From positions 1 through 32,837 of the forward strand of contig CALVRK010000002.1 of the NCBI GenBank assembly GCA_944358565.1: 32,837 nucleotides of DNA. Reading direction: 5' to 3'. A model generated the notes under the pieces. The model ran no database searches and was not told the DNA's origin. It saw nothing but the letters and a program-made list of their open reading frames with translations. The stretch comes from an uncultured Bacilli bacterium. GTDB lineage: Bacteria; Bacillota_I; Bacilli_A; RF39; UBA660. A program made the position numbers and the translations under genes. Numbering within the stretch: the stretch's first letter is position 1; every line of letters begins with the position of its first letter. This document shows, in pieces, positions 7,632 to 19,656 of the stretch.

Positions 7632-8854
7632 TGCGTATCGGAATATTTACAGAAACCTATACTCCATATATTAGTGGTTTAGTTACTAGTGAACTTATGT
7701 TAAAAAAAGCCCTAGAAAAAAAAGGCCATGAAGTTTATGTTGTTACTGCCAACTTAACTAGTTCTAAATATGAGTATGATGAAAAAGAACGAGTACTCAG
7801 AATTCCAGGCATTCCAACTGGTATATACGATTCAAGATTAACAAGTATTTATCCAATCAAAGCCATCAATAAAATTAAAAGTTGGGATTTAGACGTCATT
7901 CATTCACAAACCGAATTTGCTATTGGAACTTTTGCTAGACTATTTGCTAAGCAATATAACATTCCAATCGTTCATACATATCACACGATGTATGAAGATT
8001 ATGTTCATTATATTACTAGGGGACATTTCGATAAATCTAGTAAAAAATTACTTGAATATTTAACTAAATTCTATTGTGATAGAACTATTAATGAACTTAT
8101 TGTTCCAACTAAAAAGGCCTATGATTTATTTAAAAAGAAATATAATGTTGAACGTAATATTCATATCATTCCAACCGGAATTGAAGTCGAAAGATTTTAT
8201 AAAGAAAAAATTGATTCTAAAAAAATATCTAAATTAAAAAAACAATATAATATTTCCAGAAGAGATTTTGTCGCTGTCTTTGTCGGACGAATTGCCGAAG
8301 AAAAAAACATTCCATTTTTAATTAACATAACTCAGGATTTAATTAAAAATAGACCAAACTTTAAACTTTTAATTATTGGTGATGGGCCAGATAAAGAAGC
8401 CTATGAGAAAATGTCTAAAGAAAAAGGTTGTGAAAAAAATATCATCTTCACTGGAAAAGTTCCTTGGGATGACATACCAATCTATTATCAGCTTGGCTCT
8501 GTTTTCATCTCAGCTTCTCAAAGTGAAACCCAAGGTCTAACAATCATTGAAGCTATGGCTGCTTCACTTCCAGCTTTATGCATCGATGATGAAAGCTTTA
8601 GAGATACGGTTGTTGATGATTTAAATGGGTTCTTATTTAAAGATGAAACGTCATGTAAAGAAATAATTAATAAAATTATGGATGATAAAAAATTATTAAC
8701 AAACCTTCAAAATGGTGCTCAAAATAGTGCGGAGATGCATTCATCTAAATACTTTGCTGAAAAAGTTTTAGACGTTTACAAATTAGCTATTAATAACCGT
8801 AAACCAAGCTATAAAGAAAAAATTACTAATTTCTTTAAGAAGGTGTTTTCATGA
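7631..8854 (+). CDS. Family 4 glycosyltransferase (diacylglycerol glucosyltransferase-like, glycolipid synthase)
   Basis: MRIGIFTETYTPYISG N-terminus and a GT-B C-terminal motif (ETQGLTIIEAMAASLP). The start overlaps the previous stop codon (TAATG). Confidence 0.8.
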   Translation: MRIGIFTETYTPYISGLVTSELMLKKALEKKGHEVYVVTANLTSSKYEYDEKERVLRIPGIPTGIYDSRLTSIYPIKAINKIKSWDLDVIHSQTEFAIGTFARLFAKQYNIPIVHTYHTMYEDYVHYITRGHFDKSSKKLLEYLTKFYCDRTINELIVPTKKAYDLFKKKYNVERNIHIIPTGIEVERFYKEKIDSKKISKLKKQYNISRRDFVAVFVGRIAEEKNIPFLINITQDLIKNRPNFKLLIIGDGPDKEAYEKMSKEKGCEKNIIFTGKVPWDDIPIYYQLGSVFISASQSETQGLTIIEAMAASLPALCIDDESFRDTVVDDLNGFLFKDETSCKEIINKIMDDKKLLTNLQNGAQNSAEMHSSKYFAEKVLDVYKLAINNRKPSYKEKITNFFKKVFS

Positions 8855-9546
8855 GTAAACTCGTTTTAGCTAATTTAAAAATGTATCAAAGTACTAAAGA
8901 AAGCGTTGATGATTATATAAATAAATTAAAAGAAGTAAAAGATAAATTCATCGTTTTTCCTTCTACAATTTATTTAGAAAAATTCATCCAAAATAATTTT
9001 ACTTGTGGTGTTCAAAACGCCTCAGTTCATAATCCGGGTCCATACACTAGTGAAGTTTCAATTCATTCATTAAAAAACATGGGTATAAAATATGTTTTAC
9101 TAGGTCATAGTGAAGTTAGACAAAATATGGCTGAAGATGATGAACTAATTAACCGTAAAATAAAACAAGCCATTAATAATAATTTAAAAGTTATTTTGTG
9201 TATTGGTGAAAGCCTAGAAGCTTATAATCAAAGCCAAACTAAAATAATATTGAAAAGTCAAATAGAAAAAGCTTTAAAAGATATTAGTGAGGAAGTAATA
9301 ATTTCTTATGAACCCGTATGGGCCATCGGTAGTGGCAAAACTCCTACTAATAATGAAATTGAAGATATCACAAAATATATTAAAAGTTTATTTGATTATG
9401 ATGTAAAAGTATTATATGGTGGTAGTGTATCAGATGAAAATATTAATACATTAAATGAAATACCAAATATCGATGGTTTTCTAATCGGGAAAGCTGCCAT
9501 TGATCCAAGTAGTCTAATGAAAATTATAGAAGTTGCTGAAAAGTAA
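8851..9546 (+). CDS. tpiA: Triosephosphate isomerase
   Basis: NLKMY, GHSEVR, YEPVWAIGSGKT and YGGSV motifs. An ATGA overlap joins it to the GT4 gene. Confidence 0.9.
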   Translation: MSKLVLANLKMYQSTKESVDDYINKLKEVKDKFIVFPSTIYLEKFIQNNFTCGVQNASVHNPGPYTSEVSIHSLKNMGIKYVLLGHSEVRQNMAEDDELINRKIKQAINNNLKVILCIGESLEAYNQSQTKIILKSQIEKALKDISEEVIISYEPVWAIGSGKTPTNNEIEDITKYIKSLFDYDVKVLYGGSVSDENINTLNEIPNIDGFLIGKAAIDPSSLMKIIEVAEK

Positions 9547-9569
9547 CTTCTATTTTTTTGAAAAAGTCA

Positions 9570-9576
9570 TTCGACA
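9570..9576 (-). promoter_or_regulatory. Candidate Spo0A box (TGTCGAA on the minus strand) upstream of spo0A
   Basis: ttcgaca at 9570-9576 is an exact match to the 7-bp 0A-box consensus, about 80 nt upstream of the spo0A ATG. Confidence 0.35.
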
Positions 9577-9596
9577 AAACTAGCTATTTTTTACTC

Positions 9597-9625
9597 TAGA
9601 AAATAGTGTCAATCTTTTGTATAAT
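9597..9625 (+). promoter_or_regulatory. Candidate sigma-A-type promoter of spo0A
   Basis: TAGAAA (9597-9602), 17-nt spacer, TATAAT (9620-9625). Confidence 0.3.
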
Positions 9626-9651
9626 TTGAATATAGTAAAGGGGAATGAAAA

Positions 9652-10416
9652 ATGGAAAGAATAAATATTTTAATGATTGATGATAATATAAACCTAATAG
9701 AAATGGTTAAAGAGTATTTTAAAGATAATGAGGATGTAAATATTGCCTTTGAAGCCCATGATGGCGAAGAAGGAATTAATGAAATAACTAAAAATAAAGA
9801 TAAAATAGACTTAATAATCTTGGATTTAATTATGCCAAATAAAGACGGTATCTATGTCTTAAACGAAATGAAAAAACGTGGTATTAATAAGAAAGTAATC
9901 GTTGCGACTAGCTATAATGCCGCTGAAGTTATTAGAGAAGTATCTGAATTCGGAGTAAGTTATTATATTTTAAAACCTTTTGATTTGTCTGATTTAGAAA
10001 AGAGAATTTATGGTATTACTAAAAAAGAAAATAATAATAAAAACATCGACTTTTATACTAGTAACTTGCAAGTTGCTATTACTAAAATGCTTCATGAATT
10101 AGGTATACCTTCACATATAAAAGGTTATCAATATATCAGAGAAGCTGTTAATATAATTTTTGAAAATCCATCAGTAATTGGTGGAATTACTAAAGAGTTA
10201 TATCCAGAATTAGCTAAAAAGTTTAATACTACAACCTCTAGAGTTGAAAGAGCTATTAGACATGCTATCGAAGTAAGTTGGAATAGGGGAAACTTAGATT
10301 TTATGGAAGAAATATTTGGATATAGTGTTGATATTGATAAAGCCAAACCAACTAACTCCGAATTTATGGTGACAATTGCCGACAAATTAAGATTAGATTT
10401 TCATCAAGTAAACTAA
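9652..10416 (+). CDS. spo0A: Sporulation master regulator Spo0A
   Basis: Receiver domain (DLIILDLIMPNKDG) plus the Spo0A-specific C-terminal domain (HIKGYQYIREAV, SRVERAIRHAIEVSW). Confidence 0.9.
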   Translation: MERINILMIDDNINLIEMVKEYFKDNEDVNIAFEAHDGEEGINEITKNKDKIDLIILDLIMPNKDGIYVLNEMKKRGINKKVIVATSYNAAEVIREVSEFGVSYYILKPFDLSDLEKRIYGITKKENNNKNIDFYTSNLQVAITKMLHELGIPSHIKGYQYIREAVNIIFENPSVIGGITKELYPELAKKFNTTTSRVERAIRHAIEVSWNRGNLDFMEEIFGYSVDIDKAKPTNSEFMVTIADKLRLDFHQVN

Positions 10417-10433
10417 TCTTTTTTTCTTATTTG

Positions 10434-10442
10434 TGATATAAT
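10434..10442 (+). promoter_or_regulatory. Extended -10 promoter element for the two-pilin operon
   Basis: TGaTATAAT at 10434-10442 is a perfect TGnTATAAT, 22 nt upstream of ATG 10465. Confidence 0.45.
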
Positions 10443-10464
10443 TGTTCTAGAGTAGGTGAAGACA

Positions 10465-10860
10465 ATGAAAAATAAAGGATTTACTTTAACAGAACTATTA
10501 GGAACGATTGTTATTTTAGCCATTATTGCTTTAGTTGCTTTCCCAGCTGTATTGGGACTGCTTAATAATTCTCAAGATGAAACCGATGAAGCTTTACAAA
10601 ACTTCGCTATAGCAGGAGCTAGAAGCTATGTCAATGATAATATGGATTCATTTCCTAAAGCTTTATCAACCTCATCTTCTGTTAGATCTTATGGTAGTGC
10701 TGGAAACCTTACTGTTCAAAAATTAGTTGATGAAGGGTATATTAGTGATACAACTATAGATTCAACTAAAAACTGTGAAATGTTAAATGATTATGTCAAA
10801 GTAACTAGTGATTCTAAAAAGTATCTATTTGAATATGTTGAGGTCGATGGAGGATGTTAA
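10465..10860 (+). CDS. Type IV prepilin-like protein
   Basis: MKNKG|FTLTELLGTIVILAIIALVAF. ATG 10465 lies within track ORF 10456. It has an internal Cys and a C-terminal Cys (..VDGGC). Confidence 0.8.
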   Translation: MKNKGFTLTELLGTIVILAIIALVAFPAVLGLLNNSQDETDEALQNFAIAGARSYVNDNMDSFPKALSTSSSVRSYGSAGNLTVQKLVDEGYISDTTIDSTKNCEMLNDYVKVTSDSKKYLFEYVEVDGGC

Positions 10861-10862
10861 AT

Positions 10863-11336
10863 ATGAAAAAAAATGCATTTACTTTAGTTGAACTTTTGGC
10901 CGTTATTACTATTTTAGGAATTTTAGCTACTATTACTGTACCGATTGTTATAAATGTTTTTAACTCAGCATCAGAAAGTGCTTTTGAAGATGATGCTATG
11001 ACTTTATCTAAAGCCGCTGATAATTATTACACATCACTTACTTTAGAAAGTGATACTAAACTGCCGCTTTTAGTAACTTTTAATAGTGGAAAAGAAACTA
11101 ATAAATATAAAAACAACGTTAATAATGCTTGTGAAACATCTTCAGAAAGATTATTAGAATATAATGGGCAAACTCCTGATAGCGGTAATATATTTATCGA
11201 TAGTAATGGAGAAGTTACTTTAGCTATTTACGATAGACAATCTAAAAAATGCGCTATTAAAAATCCGGGTGATAAAACAGTCACCTTTACAGAAAAATCA
11301 GAAAGTGAATGTAAATTAACAAATAACCCTTGTTAA
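10863..11336 (+). CDS. Type IV prepilin-like protein (Ala at position -1)
   Basis: MKKNA|FTLVELLAVITILGILA. RBS ggagga (10847-10852) fits ATG 10863. Four Cys residues, including the C-terminal residue (..NNPC). Confidence 0.8.
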   Translation: MKKNAFTLVELLAVITILGILATITVPIVINVFNSASESAFEDDAMTLSKAADNYYTSLTLESDTKLPLLVTFNSGKETNKYKNNVNNACETSSERLLEYNGQTPDSGNIFIDSNGEVTLAIYDRQSKKCAIKNPGDKTVTFTEKSESECKLTNNPC

Positions 11337-11360
11337 CACATATAATGTGTTAACATTTTT
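11332..11360 (+). terminator. Rho-independent terminator ending the pilin operon
   Basis: Perfect 10-bp stem: gttaacacat (11332-11341) pairs with atgtgttaac (11345-11354), loop ata, followed by attttta. Confidence 0.7.
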
Positions 11361-11417
11361 ATAAAATTGCATAAAATAATAATATATTGCAGTTTTGGGA
11401 GATATTTTCTCTTAAAC

Positions 11418-11446
11418 TTGCAAAAAAGCATTAATAATGATAAAAT
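11418..11446 (+). promoter_or_regulatory. Candidate sigma-A promoter of the ATPase/RloB operon
   Basis: TTGCAA (11418-11423), 17-nt spacer, TAAAAT (11441-11446). RBS aaaggaaggg precedes ATG 11470. Confidence 0.45.
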
Positions 11447-11469
11447 ATGGCTAAAGGAAGGGAAAAATT

Positions 11470-12672
11470 ATGTTAATTCAATTTAAATTTAAAAATCATA
11501 AAAGCTTTTATGATGAAAATGTATTGGATTTAATGGCGACCAGTGAAAAAAGACATATTGAAACTACTGTTAATATTAATGGTAATAAAATTTTACCAGT
11601 AATAGCAATTCATGGAGCCAATGCTTCTGGAAAAAGTGGTATTCTTGAGGCTTTAGAGTTTATGTTTAAAACGATTAAAGAGTCTAGTCACATTGACATT
11701 AATCAAGACCTACAAGTAAATCCATTTGCTTTTTCTACCAAGTCGTTAGTTCAAAACAGTGAATATGAATTTTCTATTTGCTTAGGAGATTATGAATATA
11801 GATATGGATTTGCTATAAATAAAGATGGCTTTGATGAAGAGTGGCTTTATCAAAAAAAATTCGCCGCTAATACTAGAGTATCTCAAAAAATCATCTTTGA
11901 AAGATCTGAAGATAAAGTAGAATTTGGATCATCATATAAAAAATATAAGAAAATTTGGGATTTGTTTGGTAACGATAGTCCAAGTTCTAAAAAAATATTA
12001 ATCTTAAGTAATGTAGCAATTAAAGAAACAGATGGTGTTTTAAGACAAATTTATGATTATGTATGCAAATTCAATTTTAAAATTGAACATTTCTATAATA
12101 AGACGAGTATTGATATTTTAACTAAAGATAGTTCATTATATAATAAATTTCAAAAAATTATTAATGAATTTGATCCTTGTTTATTAGGTATCAAAATTGA
12201 TGAAATAAATTATGAAAATGGTGAAAAAAGATATGTTATTAATGGTATTCATAAAAATTTAGAAAATAACGTAATTCATTCTTTAATTCCTCTGCACAAA
12301 GAATCAGATGGAACAATTAAAATTTTTAATATTATGCCAACAATTTTAAAAAATCTAGAAGAAGGTGGATTATTGTGTATTGATGAATTAGATATAAAAT
12401 TTCACCCATTATTATTTAAAAAAATAGTTAATATGTATAAAAATAGAAAAATTAATAAAAATAATGCCCAATTAATCTATACTGCTCATTCGACATTTAT
12501 GTTTAATAATGCTGATTTAAGAAGAGACCAAATTTATTTAGTAGATAAAGATAAACTTGGAAAATCTCATTTATATTCATTATCTGAATTCAGAAATTTA
12601 AGAGCTGATTCAGATTATGAAAAAAAATATTTAACCGGCCAGTTTGGAGCAATTCCTTTTGAAGATGAGTAG
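11470..12672 (+). CDS. AAA_21/AAA_15-type (ABC-like) ATPase, AbiLi/RloA-like
   Basis: Walker A GANASGKS, Walker B LLCIDELD, and the QLIYTAHS...LRRDQIYLVDKD tail typical of COG1106-type ATPases. Confidence 0.8.
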   Translation: MLIQFKFKNHKSFYDENVLDLMATSEKRHIETTVNINGNKILPVIAIHGANASGKSGILEALEFMFKTIKESSHIDINQDLQVNPFAFSTKSLVQNSEYEFSICLGDYEYRYGFAINKDGFDEEWLYQKKFAANTRVSQKIIFERSEDKVEFGSSYKKYKKIWDLFGNDSPSSKKILILSNVAIKETDGVLRQIYDYVCKFNFKIEHFYNKTSIDILTKDSSLYNKFQKIINEFDPCLLGIKIDEINYENGEKRYVINGIHKNLENNVIHSLIPLHKESDGTIKIFNIMPTILKNLEEGGLLCIDELDIKFHPLLFKKIVNMYKNRKINKNNAQLIYTAHSTFMFNNADLRRDQIYLVDKDKLGKSHLYSLSEFRNLRADSDYEKKYLTGQFGAIPFEDE

Positions 12673-12680
12673 GTGACATT

Positions 12681-13373
12681 ATGGGAAGTGACAACCTATT
12701 TGTTAGAAGAAAAAATGAACGAAAAAAAAGAAAAGAAAACATTTCCAAGCAAAAATCAAGTAACTGGCTTATAGTATGTGAGGGGACTAAAACAGAACCA
12801 AATTATTTCATTGAAGCAGTAAATGAAATTAACAAAAATATTGAAGATAAATATAAATTAAAAGTAAATGTTATAGGAACTGGTAAAAATACAGTATCTT
12901 TAGTAAAATCAGTAGAAGATTTGCAAGTTGAAATAGACAAATATAATAATAGATTAATTCCATACAGTAAAATATTTGTCGTGTTTGATAAAGATGATTT
13001 TAGTGATAAAAATTTTGATGAAGCTATTAATATGTGTCTAACAAATGGATATATTCCATTATGGTCTAACCAGGCTATTGAATTTTGGTTTCTATTACAT
13101 TTCAATTATATTGATGGAAAAATAGATAGAAAAATGTATGCCACCAAAATAAATGAATATTTTAAAAAGAAAGGATTAAAATATACTTATCATAAAAATG
13201 ATTCTAAAATATATTCTAAACTTTGCGAACATGGCTCTTTAAATAAAGCTAAAACAAATGCTAAAAAAATACATTTAACTCATATTAAAGATAAACCATC
13301 GCAGTCAGAAAGCTGTACATCAGTATATAAATTTTTTGAGGCAGTAGACGAAAGATTAGATGAACTAAAATAA
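12681..13373 (+). CDS. RloB-like (Toprim-related) protein, AbiLii-like
   Basis: WLIVCEGTKTEPNYF, IFVVFDKDDF and WSNQAIEFWFLLHF are the hallmark RloB motifs. It lies 8 nt after the ATPase gene. Confidence 0.8.
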   Translation: MGSDNLFVRRKNERKKRKENISKQKSSNWLIVCEGTKTEPNYFIEAVNEINKNIEDKYKLKVNVIGTGKNTVSLVKSVEDLQVEIDKYNNRLIPYSKIFVVFDKDDFSDKNFDEAINMCLTNGYIPLWSNQAIEFWFLLHFNYIDGKIDRKMYATKINEYFKKKGLKYTYHKNDSKIYSKLCEHGSLNKAKTNAKKIHLTHIKDKPSQSESCTSVYKFFEAVDERLDELK

Positions 13374-13382
13374 TATTCCTAC

Positions 13383-13412
13383 AAAAGCATACTAATATTA
13401 AGTATGTTTTTG
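13383..13412 (+). terminator. Hairpin terminator after the RloB-like gene
   Basis: aaaagcatact pairs with agtatgttttt, loop aatatta. Confidence 0.45.
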
Positions 13413-13465
13413 CTTGCTTATTAAACTAAATTAGTATATAATCATTTAAGAAAAACGGTGATAAC

Positions 13466-14440
13466 ATGAAGTGGAAAATTGGAAATATTGAAATAAAAAA
13501 TCAAGTTGTTTTAGCCCCTATGGCTGGTATTAGTAACAGTAGTTTTAGAAGAATTGCTAAAGAAATGGGCTGTGGTTTAATAGTCGCTGAAATGGTTAGT
13601 GATAAAGCTATTTGTTATGGTAGTAAAAAAACATTAGATATGCTTTATATGACTGACTTTGAAAGGCCTCTTTCCCAGCAAATCTTTGGTAGTGATAAAG
13701 ACTCTTTTACTAAAGCTGCTAAATATATTGAGGAAAATATGCATCCAGATATTATTGATATTAATATGGGATGTCCAGTCCCTAAGGTTGCTGTTTCTGC
13801 AGAGGCTGGTAGTGCCTTATTAAAAAATCCAAATAAAGTATATGATATAGTTAAGGCAGTTGTTGACATTGTAAATGTTCCAGTTACTGTTAAAATAAGA
13901 AGTGGATGGGATAGTAATCATATAAATGCTGTTGAAATTGCTAAAATCTGTGAAAAAGCTGGAGCTAGTGCTATCACTATTCATGGCAGAACAAGAGCTC
14001 AAGGTTATAGTGGAAAAGCTGATTGGAATATTATTAAAAAAGTTAAAGAAAATGTCAGTATTCCTGTAATTGGTAATGGTGATATAAAATCTCCTTTAGA
14101 TGCTAAAAAAATGTTAGATGAAACAGGCTGTGATGCTGTTATGATTGCTCGTGGTGCTTTAGGCAATCCTTGGATCATTAAAAATACTATTCATTATTTA
14201 GAAAAAGGTGAACTTTTACCAGATCCGACTAAAGAAGATAAAATAAATATGATTAAAAAACATTTAGATTATCTTTTAGAGACAAAACCTGAAAAAGTAG
14301 CTCTTCTTGAAATGCGAACAGAAGCGAGTTATTATTTAAAGGGACTGAAAGGAGCTTCTCCTTATAAAATAAAATTGTTTCAAACAAATACTAAAGAAGA
14401 CTTTTTAAAAGTTATTGATGAATTTTCTAAAATGACCTAG
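13466..14440 (+). CDS. dusB: tRNA-dihydrouridine synthase B
   Basis: 324 aa with LAPMAGISN, DINMGCP and IHGRTR motifs. Confidence 0.9.
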   Translation: MKWKIGNIEIKNQVVLAPMAGISNSSFRRIAKEMGCGLIVAEMVSDKAICYGSKKTLDMLYMTDFERPLSQQIFGSDKDSFTKAAKYIEENMHPDIIDINMGCPVPKVAVSAEAGSALLKNPNKVYDIVKAVVDIVNVPVTVKIRSGWDSNHINAVEIAKICEKAGASAITIHGRTRAQGYSGKADWNIIKKVKENVSIPVIGNGDIKSPLDAKKMLDETGCDAVMIARGALGNPWIIKNTIHYLEKGELLPDPTKEDKINMIKKHLDYLLETKPEKVALLEMRTEASYYLKGLKGASPYKIKLFQTNTKEDFLKVIDEFSKMT

Positions 14441-14462
14441 TTTTTAATTAAACTAGGCTTTT
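14436..14462. terminator. Bidirectional hairpin between dusB and the minus-strand HTH gene
   Basis: cctagttt (14436-14443) pairs with aaactagg (14450-14457), followed by cttttc. Confidence 0.5.
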
Positions 14463-14656
14463 CAATACTAAGTAATTCTCCTGGGTTACAGTTTAAATAT
14501 AAACAAAATTCTTCAATATATTTAAATGATATAGAACTTGTTTCCCCCCCTAATTATTCTATTTAAATTTCTAGAAGTAATATTCATCTTTTGACATAAC
14601 CAGTATTTACTTCTTTTTTCTTTTTTTAAAAGCTTCTCAATATTGACATTTACCAT
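14437..14656 (-). pseudogene. XRE/Cro-type helix-turn-helix regulator interrupted at a G7 (plus-strand C7) tract
   Basis: Hand translation from ATG 14656 gives MVNVNIEKLLKKEKRSKYWLCQKMNITSRNLNRIIRGG, then an early stop. With one G fewer the frame continues ..RGETSSISFKYIEEFCLYLNCNPGELLSIEKPSLIKN* (72 aa), a typical XRE HTH protein. It is absent from the ORF track because both pieces are under 60 aa. Confidence 0.65.
14544..14550. repeat. C7/G7 homopolymer tract inside the HTH gene
   Basis: tttccccccctaa. This is the longest G/C run I could find by eye in this AT-rich window. Confidence 0.95.
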
Positions 14657-14814
14657 TTATTCACCACTTTCTATACAAATTGTACATAATATGGTAAATA
14701 TAAATAAGATACTTGCATTACCCCCTATAAATGGTTTATAATTAAAATAAGATAAAATATGACAATAATTGATATAACTTAGTTACTATAATTTAAAATA
14801 AGAGGTGGAGTATA

Positions 14815-17800
14815 ATGCATAGAAGTAAAAGAAAAAGAAATATTATAATATTTAGTTTAGTGGGCGTATTACTTTGTATGGTAGTAGGATATGCGGCCTT
14901 TCAAACTAGATTAGAAATAAAAGGAACAAGTAAAGTAACTAGTAACTGGGATATTAGAATAACTAATGTCACAGATGGCACTTCAACAGGTCAAGCTGAA
15001 AATGCGATTAAACCATCTTATACAGCATTAACTGGCAACTATGGAGGCAAATCTTTATGATAAAGGTGATGCCATGGAATATGATGTCACTATCGAAAAT
15101 AAAGGAACTTTGGATGCTAAATTAAATGATATTTTAACTAATTTAGAAAATTCAAACAATGAAGCAGTATTAATAACATTCTCGGGTTATACTAAAGGTG
15201 AAATATTAAAATCAGGAGAAAGTAAATTAGTCCATGTAAAAATAGAATATAATCCCGAATATGAAGGTGGGGAAACATCTAGTGAAGTTGAAATAGTTTT
15301 TGATTATATTCAAGATGATAAAAGTGAAGATACTCCAACGACATATTTATTAACTTATGATTATAAGACCAATGGAGGTGAACGAGTTGATAGCGAAGGA
15401 GAATATTTAGCTAGTGGAAGTAATGTAGATTTAACTAATATCGCTTATAAAACAGGTTATAGATTTGTAGGATGGAATACAGATAAAGATGCTAAGGTAG
15501 GAATGACTAGTTATCAAATGAAAGAAGGACCGGCAACTTTATATGCTATTTATTCAAAAGATTTAAAAGTAACTTATGAAAAAGGAAATAATATCCAAAG
15601 TATAGGAAAAATAGAAGATCAATGTACTATTTATAATAATGAAGCATCATGTGAAGTAACTTTGCCATCTATTACACCAAATAATGGGTATAGTGTAGAT
15701 GGATGGTATAATGGTAATAATAAAATAGGGAATTCAAATGATAAATATAAAGTGACAGCTAATATTACTTTAACTTCAAAAGTAAAACAAAATATATATA
15801 CAGTAACATATGACTATAAAACAAACGGTGGAACAAATTCTACTAAAACAACAGATAAAGTGGGTTATGGAGAAAATGTTGATTTAACACCAACAGCTAC
15901 CAAAGAAGGTTGGACATTTGTAGGATGGAATACAGATAAAGATGCGACAACTAAGTTATCATCATTAACTATGGGTAATAGTAATGTTACTTTGTATGCG
16001 ATATATAGAAAAGAAGCTAAACAGGTAACTATAACCTTTAATAAAAATGGAGCTACAAGTCAAACGCCAAATGGAGGTTCAGCTAATAGTAATACTACTA
16101 TAACTCAAAGCTGTACTATTCCAGCAGTTTATAATAATGCTACGCAAGAGAGTAGCTGTAATATAACAAGTCCAACAATTAATGCATCAAGCACAACTCC
16201 AACAGTAGTTGGATATAATACTAGTGCCCAAGCTACTTCTTCATCATGGAATCAAAATACAAGTAAAGCCGTAAGTAGTGATGCAACATATTATGCAATA
16301 ACTAGAAGTGCAACTCAATTAACGGCTTCATTTAATGCTAATGGAGCTACTATTGGTGCAACTAATGCTTCATGTTATAGATATAATGGAGAAGCAAGTT
16401 GTAATGTCACTACTCCAAGTATAACTAGAAGTGGTTTTACTATAACTGGTTGGGGAACAAGTAGCTCGGCGACGACCGCAGAAATAAATGCTAATTCATT
16501 GCTTAATTTAACAGAAAACAAAACATATTATGCAGTAACGAGTAAAGTGGTAACAGTTACATATAATAAGGATTCAACAGTATCAGCTATTGGAAGATCA
16601 GAGGATACTTGTACAATTCAAAATAGTGCAACAAATTGTGGGGTAACTTTACCAAGTATTACAGTTGATGATACTCATATTTTAGATGGATGGTATAAAG
16701 GTTCTACTAAAATTGGAAATCCTAATGCCAAATATAATGTTAGTGACAATATTACTTTGACGGCTAAAGGTAAGGCTGATACTACGGCGCCTACTATTAC
16801 TTTTACTCCAAATAATTATGCTACTTATGTTGCCGATGGTTTAGATGTTGAAGTTACTGTTAAAGATGAAAAACCATTAAGGTTTAGTAATGTAAGTTAT
16901 GGTTGGAGTACTTCAGCAACTACTGCTCCATCAGAATATACTAGTATCGATGTTGATTCTAGAACAAATGAAACATCATTTATTATTCCAGGTGAGTCTA
17001 ATTCAAATATATCAGGCATTTATTATTTATGGTTAAATGGTACTATTTCTGATGCTGCTGGTAATAATTCTAAAACCCCTGCTATTAGTGGTGCTTTCTA
17101 TTTTGATAATGAAAAACCTACTGTTAGTATTACATCTACAAAAACAGGAAATGATGTTAGTGTAAAAGCAATTGCAAATGACGGTTATAGTGGTATTAAT
17201 AAATATTATTTTAGTAAAGATGGTGGTCAAAATTATATAGAAACTACTAATGATAATTATACTTTTATCGATTTAGAGCCAGGTAATTATATAATAACTG
17301 TTTATGTTACTGATAAGGCAGGTAACCAATCAGAGTTGGCTACGAAAACTGAAGGAATAGGTGCAGAAGATTTCTGTAAAGGTAATGGTATTGATGATTT
17401 TGGTGATTGTTTAATTGCAACTGAGGCTAAAGAGTCTAATATCAATACAGCCAAATCAATTATTAAAGGAAAAGGTACAACTGATGTTACAAAAGCTAGT
17501 CCAAGTGTGGTATATAAAGAAGTGCATTCAGCATCTACTACTACTGTAACTAGTAGTAGATCAGAGATATATGTTGGAACCGGTTATACATTTGATTCAT
17601 CGAAAGGTATGTATACTTTATCTAACTGGCAATTGCGAGATACGGAAAGCATTGATTTTAAATCTAGTAATTATTATGTTACTGCTAATTTTGATATAAA
17701 TTCTACAATATCAGGCTGGACAAGTTCTGGTACAATTTATAAAATTGTTAATATGAAAACAACAACTGCGGCATCTGGTCAAAAAACTTATACATATACA

Positions 17801-18982
17801 GTTTATAAGTATAATATTGCTCCAATATCATACAATACTGCAGATGTGGGAATGTTTTCTGATGTAGATGATCAAGGTGATTCGTTTTATTATCGCGGTT
17901 CTATCAGTAATAATTATGTTAAATTTGCCAATAAGATATGGCGAGTTATTAGGGTAAATGGTGACGGTAGTGTTCGAATGATCTATGATGGTACTTCAGC
18001 ACATAGTAATGGTGAAAAGAGTGATAATAGACAAGTCGGAACATCAAGATTTAATTCGTATTATGCCGATAACACATATGCGGGATATATGTATGGAAAT
18101 CCGGATGATTTTGGAGCAACGAAACCAAGAGATACATTTTTATGGGAAAAAAGTGATATTCAACCTGATACAACGTATTATTATGGGACAAGCTATACCT
18201 TGTCGGGCCGGTCTTATAAATTAGCTGGGACAATTACTTCTGGTAAATATAATTCTAGTAGAGTTGGAAAATATACTTGTTTTAGCACTTCTAAAACAGG
18301 CACTTGTCAAAGATTGGCTTTAATTAAGGAATATAAATCTGAAACTACTGCTTTGTCTCAAGTTTTGGCATATGGAAGTCAAAATAAAACTGCAGCGAGA
18401 AGTAATGTTACAGATAGTAGTATAAAAACGTATTTAGATGATTGGTATGTTGATAACTTTACTACAGCGCAGCGTAATAAATTATCTAAAAGTGCTGTTT
18501 TCTGTAATTCACGTGTTGTTTATCCTAACTTAACAGAGCCAGATAATTATAATAATTATGCCTATGGATTAAATCCAACAAGTTATTCTATTGGAAAAAT
18601 AAGAAGTTTATCTACGTATGGTGCGACATATAGCTGTGAAAATATTGATAGTTTTAGTGTAAATACGACATATGGTAATGGTGATTTGACTTATCCGATA
18701 GGTCTAATTAGTTTAGATGAAGCATTAAGATCCGGTTTAACTGCGGGTGTTTCAAATACGCTTAATTATTTGTATACTGGTAATGGTTATTGGACTATGA
18801 CACCTGCTGGTATAGGTTCATCTGCATATATGACAATTATTCATATAGGCATAAGTGGCGCTCTAGGTAATTATCAATCTAGTATTTCTTCTGTAGGTGT
18901 AAAACCAGTTATTAATATAACCACTTCGTCAATTAGCTATTCTGGAAATGGTACACAAGATGATCCTTATGTATTATCATAG
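14815..18982 (+). pseudogene. Giant mosaic surface protein (about 1388 aa if repaired), paralogue B of the GYAAF-signal family, split by a +1 frameshift near 15034-15035
   Basis: Track ORFs 14815..15060 and 15041..18982 overlap. Removing one G of the GG at 15034-15035 gives ..SYTALTATMEANLYDKGDAMEYDVTIENKGTLDA. That matches ..TTATFKTNLVSPSDSMTYTVTVANEG in paralogue A and ..LSATFNANLTTPGSSVTYDVTV in paralogue C. RBS aagaggtgg precedes ATG 14815. Confidence 0.7.
15344..16771 (+). repeat. Six tandem repeats of about 75 aa (Listeria-Bacteroides/Flg_new-like) inside the giant gene
   Basis: Units recur as Y.(V/L)TYDYKTNGG...GY.FVGWNTDKDA...LYAIY and a Cys-pair variant C..N..ASC.VTLPSIT..G..(V/L)DGWY. 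The 30-nt stretch atttgtaggatggaatacagataaagatgc occurs twice (about 15470 and 15910). Confidence 0.6.
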
Positions 18983-19025
18983 ATTTTTGATAATAAGTTA
19001 TTAATTAAAGAAAGTTGGAATTGCT

Positions 19026-19415
19026 ATGAAAAAAACAAGTAAAATAGTTTTATTCTTTGTTTTGACACTTATAATAATTTTAATAATAGTTTTAATTTTA
19101 TTATTTGGAAGTAAAAAAAATGAAAAGGTTGAAATTGATACAGTTGAAGATTTATATAAGCAAGTTGTTGACAAAAACAAGAAAAATGAAAATTATCATT
19201 ATAAGTTATATGGGTATACTTATGACGAAAATCAAAATGTAGAAATGTCTATTATGCAGGCATATGTAGAAAATAATAAAGTGTATGACATGGACGGGAA
19301 AGAGATTGGCGATTATTCTGATGATACAATAGATGAAATGTTAGATAAAGCTACTACTAAAATATATTATTTTACATTTAAAAATGGGAAATATGTTTTA
19401 AAATCATCAAAATAA
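19026..19415 (+). CDS. Small N-terminally membrane-anchored protein, unknown function
   Basis: 129-aa ORF with one TM helix (IVLFFVLTLIIILIIVLILLF), 43 nt after the giant gene. Confidence 0.55.
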   Translation: MKKTSKIVLFFVLTLIIILIIVLILLFGSKKNEKVEIDTVEDLYKQVVDKNKKNENYHYKLYGYTYDENQNVEMSIMQAYVENNKVYDMDGKEIGDYSDDTIDEMLDKATTKIYYFTFKNGKYVLKSSK

Positions 19416-19656
19416 ATTTTTGAAAGTTTGGCACTTCCGTGTTAACTTTTTAAGTGCTATATGTATGTTTTTAAGAAAGATTAATAAGCTAGTGTTTATG
19501 CTGGCTTTTTTCTTTACCACAATTTCCCATATTTCTATCAAAATTTTACCATAATAATTTAGTATGATTATTACAGAGCAAAGATGAAAAGCTCTTAGAA
19601 AGGTTGTGATAGATGATATTAAAAAATAGTGTTATACTATAAATGAGGCGATAATA

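Follow-up and report, generated by a model that had tools for sequence, protein, structure and literature searches.

Homopolymers that switch regulators include the C-run of Bordetella bvgS and the A8/A9 tract of Bacillus subtilis swrA. In Klebsiella, a poly-G tract lies in the frame of the small regulator gene rmpA, where the gain or loss of one base truncates the product and where in-frame and out-of-frame alleles both occur naturally (10.1101/2025.09.12.675794). Homopolymer tracts, among them the 7C tract of glpK, undergo frameshifts in Mycobacterium tuberculosis; their alleles were traced over strain genomes, and the recurrence of the same frameshifts on many branches (homoplasy) is evidence of adaptive switching (PMC10334774). 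Among small helix-turn-helix (HTH) regulators, CylR2 of Enterococcus faecalis (PDB 1UTX and 2XIU), the 66-residue repressor of the cytolysin operon, is encoded head to head with that operon, and the promoters of the two overlap (PMC3709268). The locus described here shares elements with each of these systems: a run of seven G interrupts a small regulator gene that is divergent from a giant surface protein gene.

The stretch of DNA analysed (the window) corresponds to contig C2 in full (32.8 kb), which belongs to a metagenome-assembled genome (MAG) of 1.0 Mb with 28% G+C, 62% completeness and 116 contigs. ORF analysis, read-through and Pfam place a small Cro/C1-type (HTH_26) regulator gene of 72 codons with one extra G on the minus strand at 14437–14656. 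The frame opened by the ATG at 14656 passes through C7 (G7 in the sense of the regulator) at 14544–14550, which takes up codons 36–38, and terminates as a 44-residue ORF (14522–14656, minus strand) ending in ..RIIRGGNKFYII*. As described in the original prediction, this run is unique in the window, in which no other G/C run reaches 6 and the next longest is C5 at 14721–14725. It had also been called conspicuous, which is correct for the window alone, where 0.07–0.22 would be expected, but not for the genome, in which G/C runs of at least 7 occur at chance frequency (4 observed per 1 Mb versus 2.0 expected under an i.i.d. model and 6.6 under a first-order Markov model).

Reading GGGG as a single Gly yields exactly the 72-residue protein that had been predicted. 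Its assignment to the Cro/C1-type HTH proteins was confirmed by a match to HTH_26 with an E-value of 3.8e-13 over profile positions 1–62 of 63, at a score of 49.9 bits against a Pfam cut-off of 22 bits. A Pfam profile search with the 44-residue product as encoded gave no match. A search of NCBIfam gave no specific family for the regulator, and a sequence search of the PDB returned nothing at E ≤ 0.01.

An AlphaFold2 model of the read-through protein, built from 42 homologues, has a pLDDT of 90.6 and displays five helices (residues 6–12, 17–24, 28–36, 44–53, and 58–61) flanked by short N- and C-terminal strands. The model and a Foldseek search agree on a five-helix fold of the lambda-repressor type. 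The best PDB fold is CylR2, with TM scores of 0.78 and 0.85 and an rmsd of 2.0 Å over 66 columns; the N-terminal domains of SaPI2 Stl and of SinR score lower (TM 0.67–0.71 for SinR), and 434 Cro is also among the matches. According to the model, the frameshift falls directly after helix 3, so that the truncated product would be devoid of helices 4 and 5 and of the C-terminal strand. The regulator allele of contig L042 differs at 16 synonymous and 0 non-synonymous sites, and judging by such sequence comparisons the regulator is under strong purifying selection wherever it is kept. Truncation is therefore expected to abolish its function.

Other assemblies of the locus were recovered via exact-match anchors, namely the proteins encoded by the window and by the loci so recovered. 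The extra G is present in eight assemblies from different samples (the window, L017, L018, L019, L022, L033, L034, and L081), whose contigs carry four naming styles (scaffold_N, SPAdes NODE, ONAT22 scaffolds, and Logan) that we read as different assembly pipelines. The study behind L017 and L018 also yielded contigs with G4 and G6 at the same site, which indicates that its assemblies resolve these lengths. Over 13.6 kb, 113 substitutions but a single indel separate the window from L019; this assembly is thus not prone to indel errors. A sequencing or assembly error in a gene that is really in frame had been kept open as an alternative, and homopolymers are indeed error-prone on some platforms, just as the genome is a fragmented and incomplete MAG. 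The recurrence of an identical G7 in eight independent assemblies nevertheless effectively excludes such an error, to which we attach next to no probability.

A comparison of tract length between strains, which had been proposed along with the original prediction, revealed three lengths: G4, G6, and G7. In a lineage of the same species that is 96–97.5% identical to the window (seven contigs, L035–L040 and L043), the site reads AGAGGGGAA, with codons AGA GGG GAA and hence G4; the gene is intact and encodes exactly the 72-residue read-through protein. A single contig, L041, has AGGGGGGAA, with AGG GGG GAA and hence G6, again in frame and intact. Its regulator gene differs from that of the window at only two other sites, both synonymous, but it lies in another background, with a flank that is 86% identical and a truncated giant gene. 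Five congeneric species use AGA GGT/GGC GAA or CGC GGA GAA at the tract codons, as do the closest other species (85–88% DNA identity). Indeed, none of the other-species orthologues read at the DNA level has a G/C homopolymer at the tract site (AGA/CGC GGN GAA).

Tract length follows haplotype, with exactly G7 in 8/8 assemblies of the clade and G4 and G6 on other haplotypes. The eight G7 contigs represent two haplotypes, a window type and an L019 type, which are separated by differences at 8 of the 379 sites of the locus and diverge by about 1% along 13.6 kb. Both carry a second, linked indel, C5 versus C4 at 14721–14725, and this shared indel argues for one origin of the allele followed by stable inheritance. 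The 34 codons (102 nt) located 3' of the tract show zero substitutions relative to the intact alleles and no second lesion in any G7 contig, which makes dN/dS for this segment uninformative and means either that the lesion is recent or that the frame is still under selection. The 73-residue product that a G9 tract would encode is not found in a collection of 15 billion proteins; the out-of-frame products of 44 and 54 residues fall below gene-caller size, so their absence from the collection carries no information. An exact-pattern scan of JGI metagenome contigs for the tract flanks gave no match, and the species seems to be absent from JGI.

The gene has also been lost by other routes. Of 60 congeners, 16 have an orthologue, intact in every case. 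None was found in the other 44, including the complete genome G012, in which the end of the dihydrouridine synthase (Dus) gene and the start of a giant gene are about 100 nt apart. Within the species complex of the window, a fourth haplotype (L076, L079, L080, and L083) contains a decayed regulator copy with several stops; its left flank is 98% identical, but the region from Dus to the giant gene is about 80% identical. By these comparisons the regulator gene is accessory and dispensable, and the losses elsewhere are independent events.

In the window, the Dus gene (13466–14440, plus strand; ORF and Pfam) is convergent with the regulator gene, their stop codons overlapping by 4 nt. On the other side lies the giant surface protein gene (14815–18982, plus strand; ORFs and Pfam), with the N-terminal domain of its family, InlB B-repeats, and Y_Y_Y. 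Its product had been called TasA-like, a label for which Pfam and NCBIfam offer no support: searches of both gave no match to TasA, camelysin, or Peptidase_M73 and returned Flg_new, Flg_new_2 (InlB B-repeats), and Y_Y_Y instead. The regulator and a gene of the surface family stand head to head, 100–315 nt apart, in all 12 species with an assembled flank, and at four of these 12 paired loci no match to Dus lies within about 2.5 kb. This divergent pairing makes a role as a local regulator reasonable. The MAG has one regulator copy and at least 17 copies of the N-terminal domain of the family; we therefore rejected the idea that the regulator serves the whole surface family, and any control would be specific to the locus.

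The giant gene is itself split in the window, into frames of 81 and 1313 residues, and is intact (1388 residues) in strains of the G4 and L019 types. Alignment with L019 identifies the lesion as an extra G at 15034–15035 on the plus strand (ACTGGCAAC versus ACTGCAAC), which is limited to the window-type strain and identical in L017 and L018. In L015, L016, L041, and G066, the giant gene is a short remnant next to an intact regulator gene, and all combinations of intact and broken regulator and giant gene occur. Since both haplotypes carry G7 and only one of them has the lesion in the giant gene, the loss of the regulator probably came first. The resulting derepression may then have favoured inactivation of the giant gene.

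Long poly-G tracts occur elsewhere in the genus near genes of the surface family. On contig C104 of the MAG, G13 sits precisely between TTGACA and TATAAC, with the start of a paralogue of 473 residues about 230 nt downstream, and tracts of G13–G16 are similarly placed in G060, G042, G007, and G044. Of the four tracts of at least G10 in the complete genome G012, three fall within a TTGAAA...TATAAT spacer, each about 20 nt ahead of the ATG of a close paralogue of the giant gene. An exact-pattern scan for the C104 promoter in genome contigs, a set to which the genome itself does not belong, gave no match. In a comparison aimed at the length of such promoter tracts in different strains, the best match to the glycosyltransferase beside the C104 tract is only 89% identical, and the giant-protein anchor P0163 returned one place, without a tract.

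The intergenic region between the regulator and the giant gene spans 158 bp (14657–14814) and contains the small palindrome TACAAATTGTA at 14674–14684, both as originally described. Comparison of alleles shows that this palindrome belongs to a larger site beside the ribosome-binding site of the regulator (14671–14694): the 5-1-5 arrangement of the window corresponds, in L019 and in the G4-type contigs L035 and L036, to a perfect 14-1-14 palindrome that extends over the ribosome-binding site; these alleles differ from the window at 14685, 14687, 14690, 14691, and 14694. Further upstream, 45–69 nt from the ATG of the regulator, lies a conserved non-coding box of 25 nt, GGGGGTAATGCAAGTATCTTATTTA (14701–14725, minus strand). 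It is almost invariant in 13 of 14 species, in surroundings that cannot be aligned, and is a candidate promoter or operator element. Together, the palindrome site and the box are candidate binding sites for the regulator. The suggestion that it acts locally thus gains support from the pairing in 12/12 species, the CylR2-like model, the box, and the palindrome site, and is reasonable, with the surface gene as its putative target. A scan of 14380–14900 for consensus promoters found sites in numbers no higher than in shuffled sequences, so that no promoter was assigned, and an Rfam search of the entire window, including the intergenic region, gave no match. We also considered TTGCAT-N18-TATAAT around the intergenic C5 as a promoter and dropped it, as its −35 hexamer agrees at only 3/6 positions.

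The original prediction had proposed that the tract is a phase switch. Read in this way, the locus would be a slow translational phase-variation (contingency) locus, in which G6 is the ON and G7 the OFF state of a repressor and the surface gene alternates between repression and derepression as the tract slips back and forth. The occurrence in nature of an in-frame G6 and an out-of-frame G7, with coding sequences that differ at only two other sites, is exactly what such a switch predicts, and a frame free of secondary decay 3' of the tract could be revived by one slip. The run lies in frame and just reaches the minimum length of seven G/C accepted as the cut-off for phase-variable tracts in PhasomeIt (PMC6321876), the pairing with a divergent surface-family gene is conserved in 12/12 species, regulators switched by homopolymers such as that of rmpA are known, and the genus has long poly-G tracts in promoters of paralogous surface genes. 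In addition, assemblies show the majority allele alone and may hide minority lengths such as G6 or G8. Against this stands the absence of length variation among near-identical strains: the length is 7 in 8/8 assemblies from two diverged haplotypes and several studies, and the only G6 is found on a different background. The repeat is also not maintained in orthologues, all 16 of which are intact in the genus; it is new and specific to this lineage, and other lineages have lost the same gene by ordinary decay or absence. Furthermore, mismatch repair is intact, with full frames for mutS (845 residues) and mutL (617 residues). For a 7G tract in Mycobacterium smegmatis, the gain of one base was measured at 3.1e-8 per generation (PMC10334774), a rate orders of magnitude below that of classical phase variation; by analogy with this other organism, slippage should be slow here. 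We consequently do not uphold the phase switch and regard it as unlikely. Doubtful to a slightly greater degree is an extended form of this proposal, in which G6/G7 would be a newly born, slow switch that acts through a CylR2-like repressor on a single locus of a surface family with at least 17 members, as one layer of a multi-layer phase-variation system that also comprises the promoter poly-G tracts. If true, the series GGT, G4, G6, G7 would show how a contingency locus is born by synonymous substitutions, in an uncultured genus of gut Bacilli with small genomes.

The intact frame downstream of the tract would also fit a bypass at the level of expression, in which tRNA-Gly slips by +1 on GGG-G during translation, or RNA polymerase slips on G7, so that some of the 72-residue regulator is still supplied at a reduced dose. 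On a run of G, a tRNA-Gly in the P site finds a perfect match again when it moves one base downstream. Such a slip would restore the exact ancestral protein, because GGGG would be read as one Gly, and every G7 contig retains an unaltered frame beyond the tract. However, there is no evident stimulatory element, the next codon, GGA, is common in AT-rich genomes, and the arrangement occurs in no other species, unlike that of known programmed frameshifts; the youth of the lesion explains the 102 nt with 0 substitutions equally well. We judge a bypass to be very improbable. The reading that we prefer, with a probability of roughly 65%, is that G7 marks a frameshift null allele that arose recently and is fixed, which makes this accessory gene a young pseudogene rather than a working on/off switch. 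The "plain pseudogene" that had been listed as an alternative fits best with the constancy of G7 in the clade and with the decay or absence of the gene elsewhere. The frame is disrupted relative to intact relatives, and the disruption is inherited over eight assemblies and two haplotypes; further degenerative mutations, a usual mark of pseudogenes, have not accumulated.

Inspection of the alleles offers a course of events for a fixed null allele. The ancestral gene encoded a single-domain Cro/C1-type (HTH_26, CylR2-like) DNA-binding protein of 72 residues, most likely a local repressor acting at the 158-bp region on its own gene, on the divergent surface gene, or on both. Two synonymous changes, GGT to GGG and then AGA to AGG, presumably in this order, would have turned the codons for Arg-Gly-Glu into a run of six G. 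A single +1 slip would then have extended G6 to G7, shifting the frame after helix 3 and ending translation at residue 44, and the resulting null allele would have been inherited unchanged since.

For annotation, this means that the regulator gene should be labelled a pseudogene and the giant gene a strain-specific pseudogene, neither being an assembly error. The finding itself is ordinary: an accessory regulator gene inactivated through a frameshift in a homopolymer. The public assemblies hold every step in the making of a slippage-prone run, from synonymous changes to the slip itself (GGT, G4, G6, and G7). The pairing of a CylR2-like regulator with one surface locus across species also provides an experimental handle on the control of a large, unannotated surface family in an uncultured gut lineage.

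The original prediction had drawn a parallel to SinR of B. subtilis, which proves to be loose. Both proteins have an HTH of the XRE type, and the fold of the SinR N-terminal domain is among those retrieved, but SinR has 111 residues and a C-terminal domain for oligomerisation and SinI binding, which the single-domain regulator lacks; moreover, SinR is neither adjacent nor divergent to tasA and is not switched by a repeat, and the neighbour here gave no match to a TasA or camelysin domain. CylR2 is closer in fold. Like the regulator, it is a single-domain HTH protein of about 70 residues, and in both cases a short shared promoter region separates the gene from its divergent target, which for the regulator is putative. 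The two proteins share about 20% identity; at the present locus a CylR1-like partner gene is missing, a giant surface protein gene stands in the place of the lantibiotic operon, and the regulator gene is frameshifted. With rmpA, the locus shares a G/C homopolymer in the frame of a small regulator, truncation by a change of one base, and natural alleles in and out of frame. In rmpA, bvgS, and swrA, however, the tract is conserved and clones switch back and forth frequently, whereas here the run is new, specific to one lineage, and constant in 8/8 assemblies. The M. tuberculosis case is similar in its tract of 7 nt of G/C and in the +1 frameshift; in contrast to their homoplasy, the distribution found here fits a single origin, with the second linked indel present in both haplotypes. 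We therefore class the locus with the known pseudogenes that arise by frameshift in a homopolymer, here in the gene of an XRE-type regulator.

Two alleles occur just upstream of the start of the 72-codon regulator gene (window 14671-14694; L019:5143-5185), and they segregate independently of its G tract. The first, a perfect 14-1-14 palindrome that covers the ribosome-binding site, is found in L019, which carries the second G7 haplotype, and in the G4 alleles L035 and L036; the second, found in the window, in the G6 allele L041 and in locus L013, differs from the palindrome at five clustered positions. Farther upstream of the regulator lies a box, GGGGGTAATGCAAGTATCTTATTTA (window 14701-14725, minus strand), which is nearly invariant in 13 of 14 species and is surrounded by DNA that cannot be aligned. 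The box has no match in Rfam; it is a candidate promoter or operator.

The divergent giant surface-protein gene carries a +1 frameshift caused by an extra G at window 15034-15035, outside any homopolymer. This lesion is confined to the window-type strain, where L017 and L018 carry it in identical form; an intact protein of 1388 residues is encoded in four other assemblies. Compared with window 15003-19507, the sister lineages represented by L015, L016 and L041 lack the giant gene's body as well as the 129-aa gene that follows it; a 52-aa remnant is left in L015 and L016 and a 246-aa short form in L041. The regulator is intact in all three. From these comparisons, the giant-gene locus appears to be a hot spot at which cassettes are lost and exchanged.

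Strains including L019 and L022 lack a 2-kb AAA_15/RloB (AbiL-like) cassette that occupies window 11344-13343, and their junctions at 11343/13344 are clean. When compared with window 8854-15378, the four contigs of a fourth haplotype of the same species complex (L076, L079, L080 and L083) prove to be mosaic: they match the window at 98% identity as far as position 11342, but only at 80-87% from 13384 onward, across the dihydrouridine synthase gene, the pseudogene of the regulator and the beginning of the giant gene. This drop in identity suggests that the mosaic arose at the site of the cassette, by recombination with a divergent lineage.

Besides the C7 run of the window and a G13 tract on contig C104, the window's own genome contains two further G/C runs of at least 7: a G7 (C51:5144-5150) that resembles the Shine-Dalgarno sequence of a gene whose first residues look primase-like, and a G8 (C40:8716-8723) in a stretch without a same-strand ORF of at least 40 aa. 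The G13 tract (G in the gene's sense; C104:1772-1784, locus L044), which far exceeds chance expectation (2e-5 per genome), fits exactly between a perfect -35 element, TTGACA, and TATAAC, a -10-like element; the resulting spacer is 21 nt long. About 230 nt downstream follows a surface-family paralogue of 473 aa. Tracts of G13-G16 are similarly placed in four other species (L045 in G060, L046 in G042, L050 in G007 and L054 in G044), where they are frequently located at contig ends.

Four tracts of at least G10 occur in G012, the complete genome of a congener; three lie within a TTGAAA...TATAAT spacer composed of N7+G12 (two cases) or N10+G11+AG (one case), with an ATG about 20 nt downstream that opens close paralogues (MHRGKKKR...) of the giant gene. 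The fourth has a similar spacer and precedes an ORF that, at a guess from its first residues, encodes an IS200-like transposase. Across this group, which comprises L067 (~803.1 kb), L070 (~924.4 kb) and L072 (~1056.4 kb) on G012:C1, together with L060 (G012, ~446.0 kb) and L061 (G066), the spacers measure 19-24 nt, above the optimal length. Poly-G tracts of the C104 type are candidates for phase variation through the promoter spacer.
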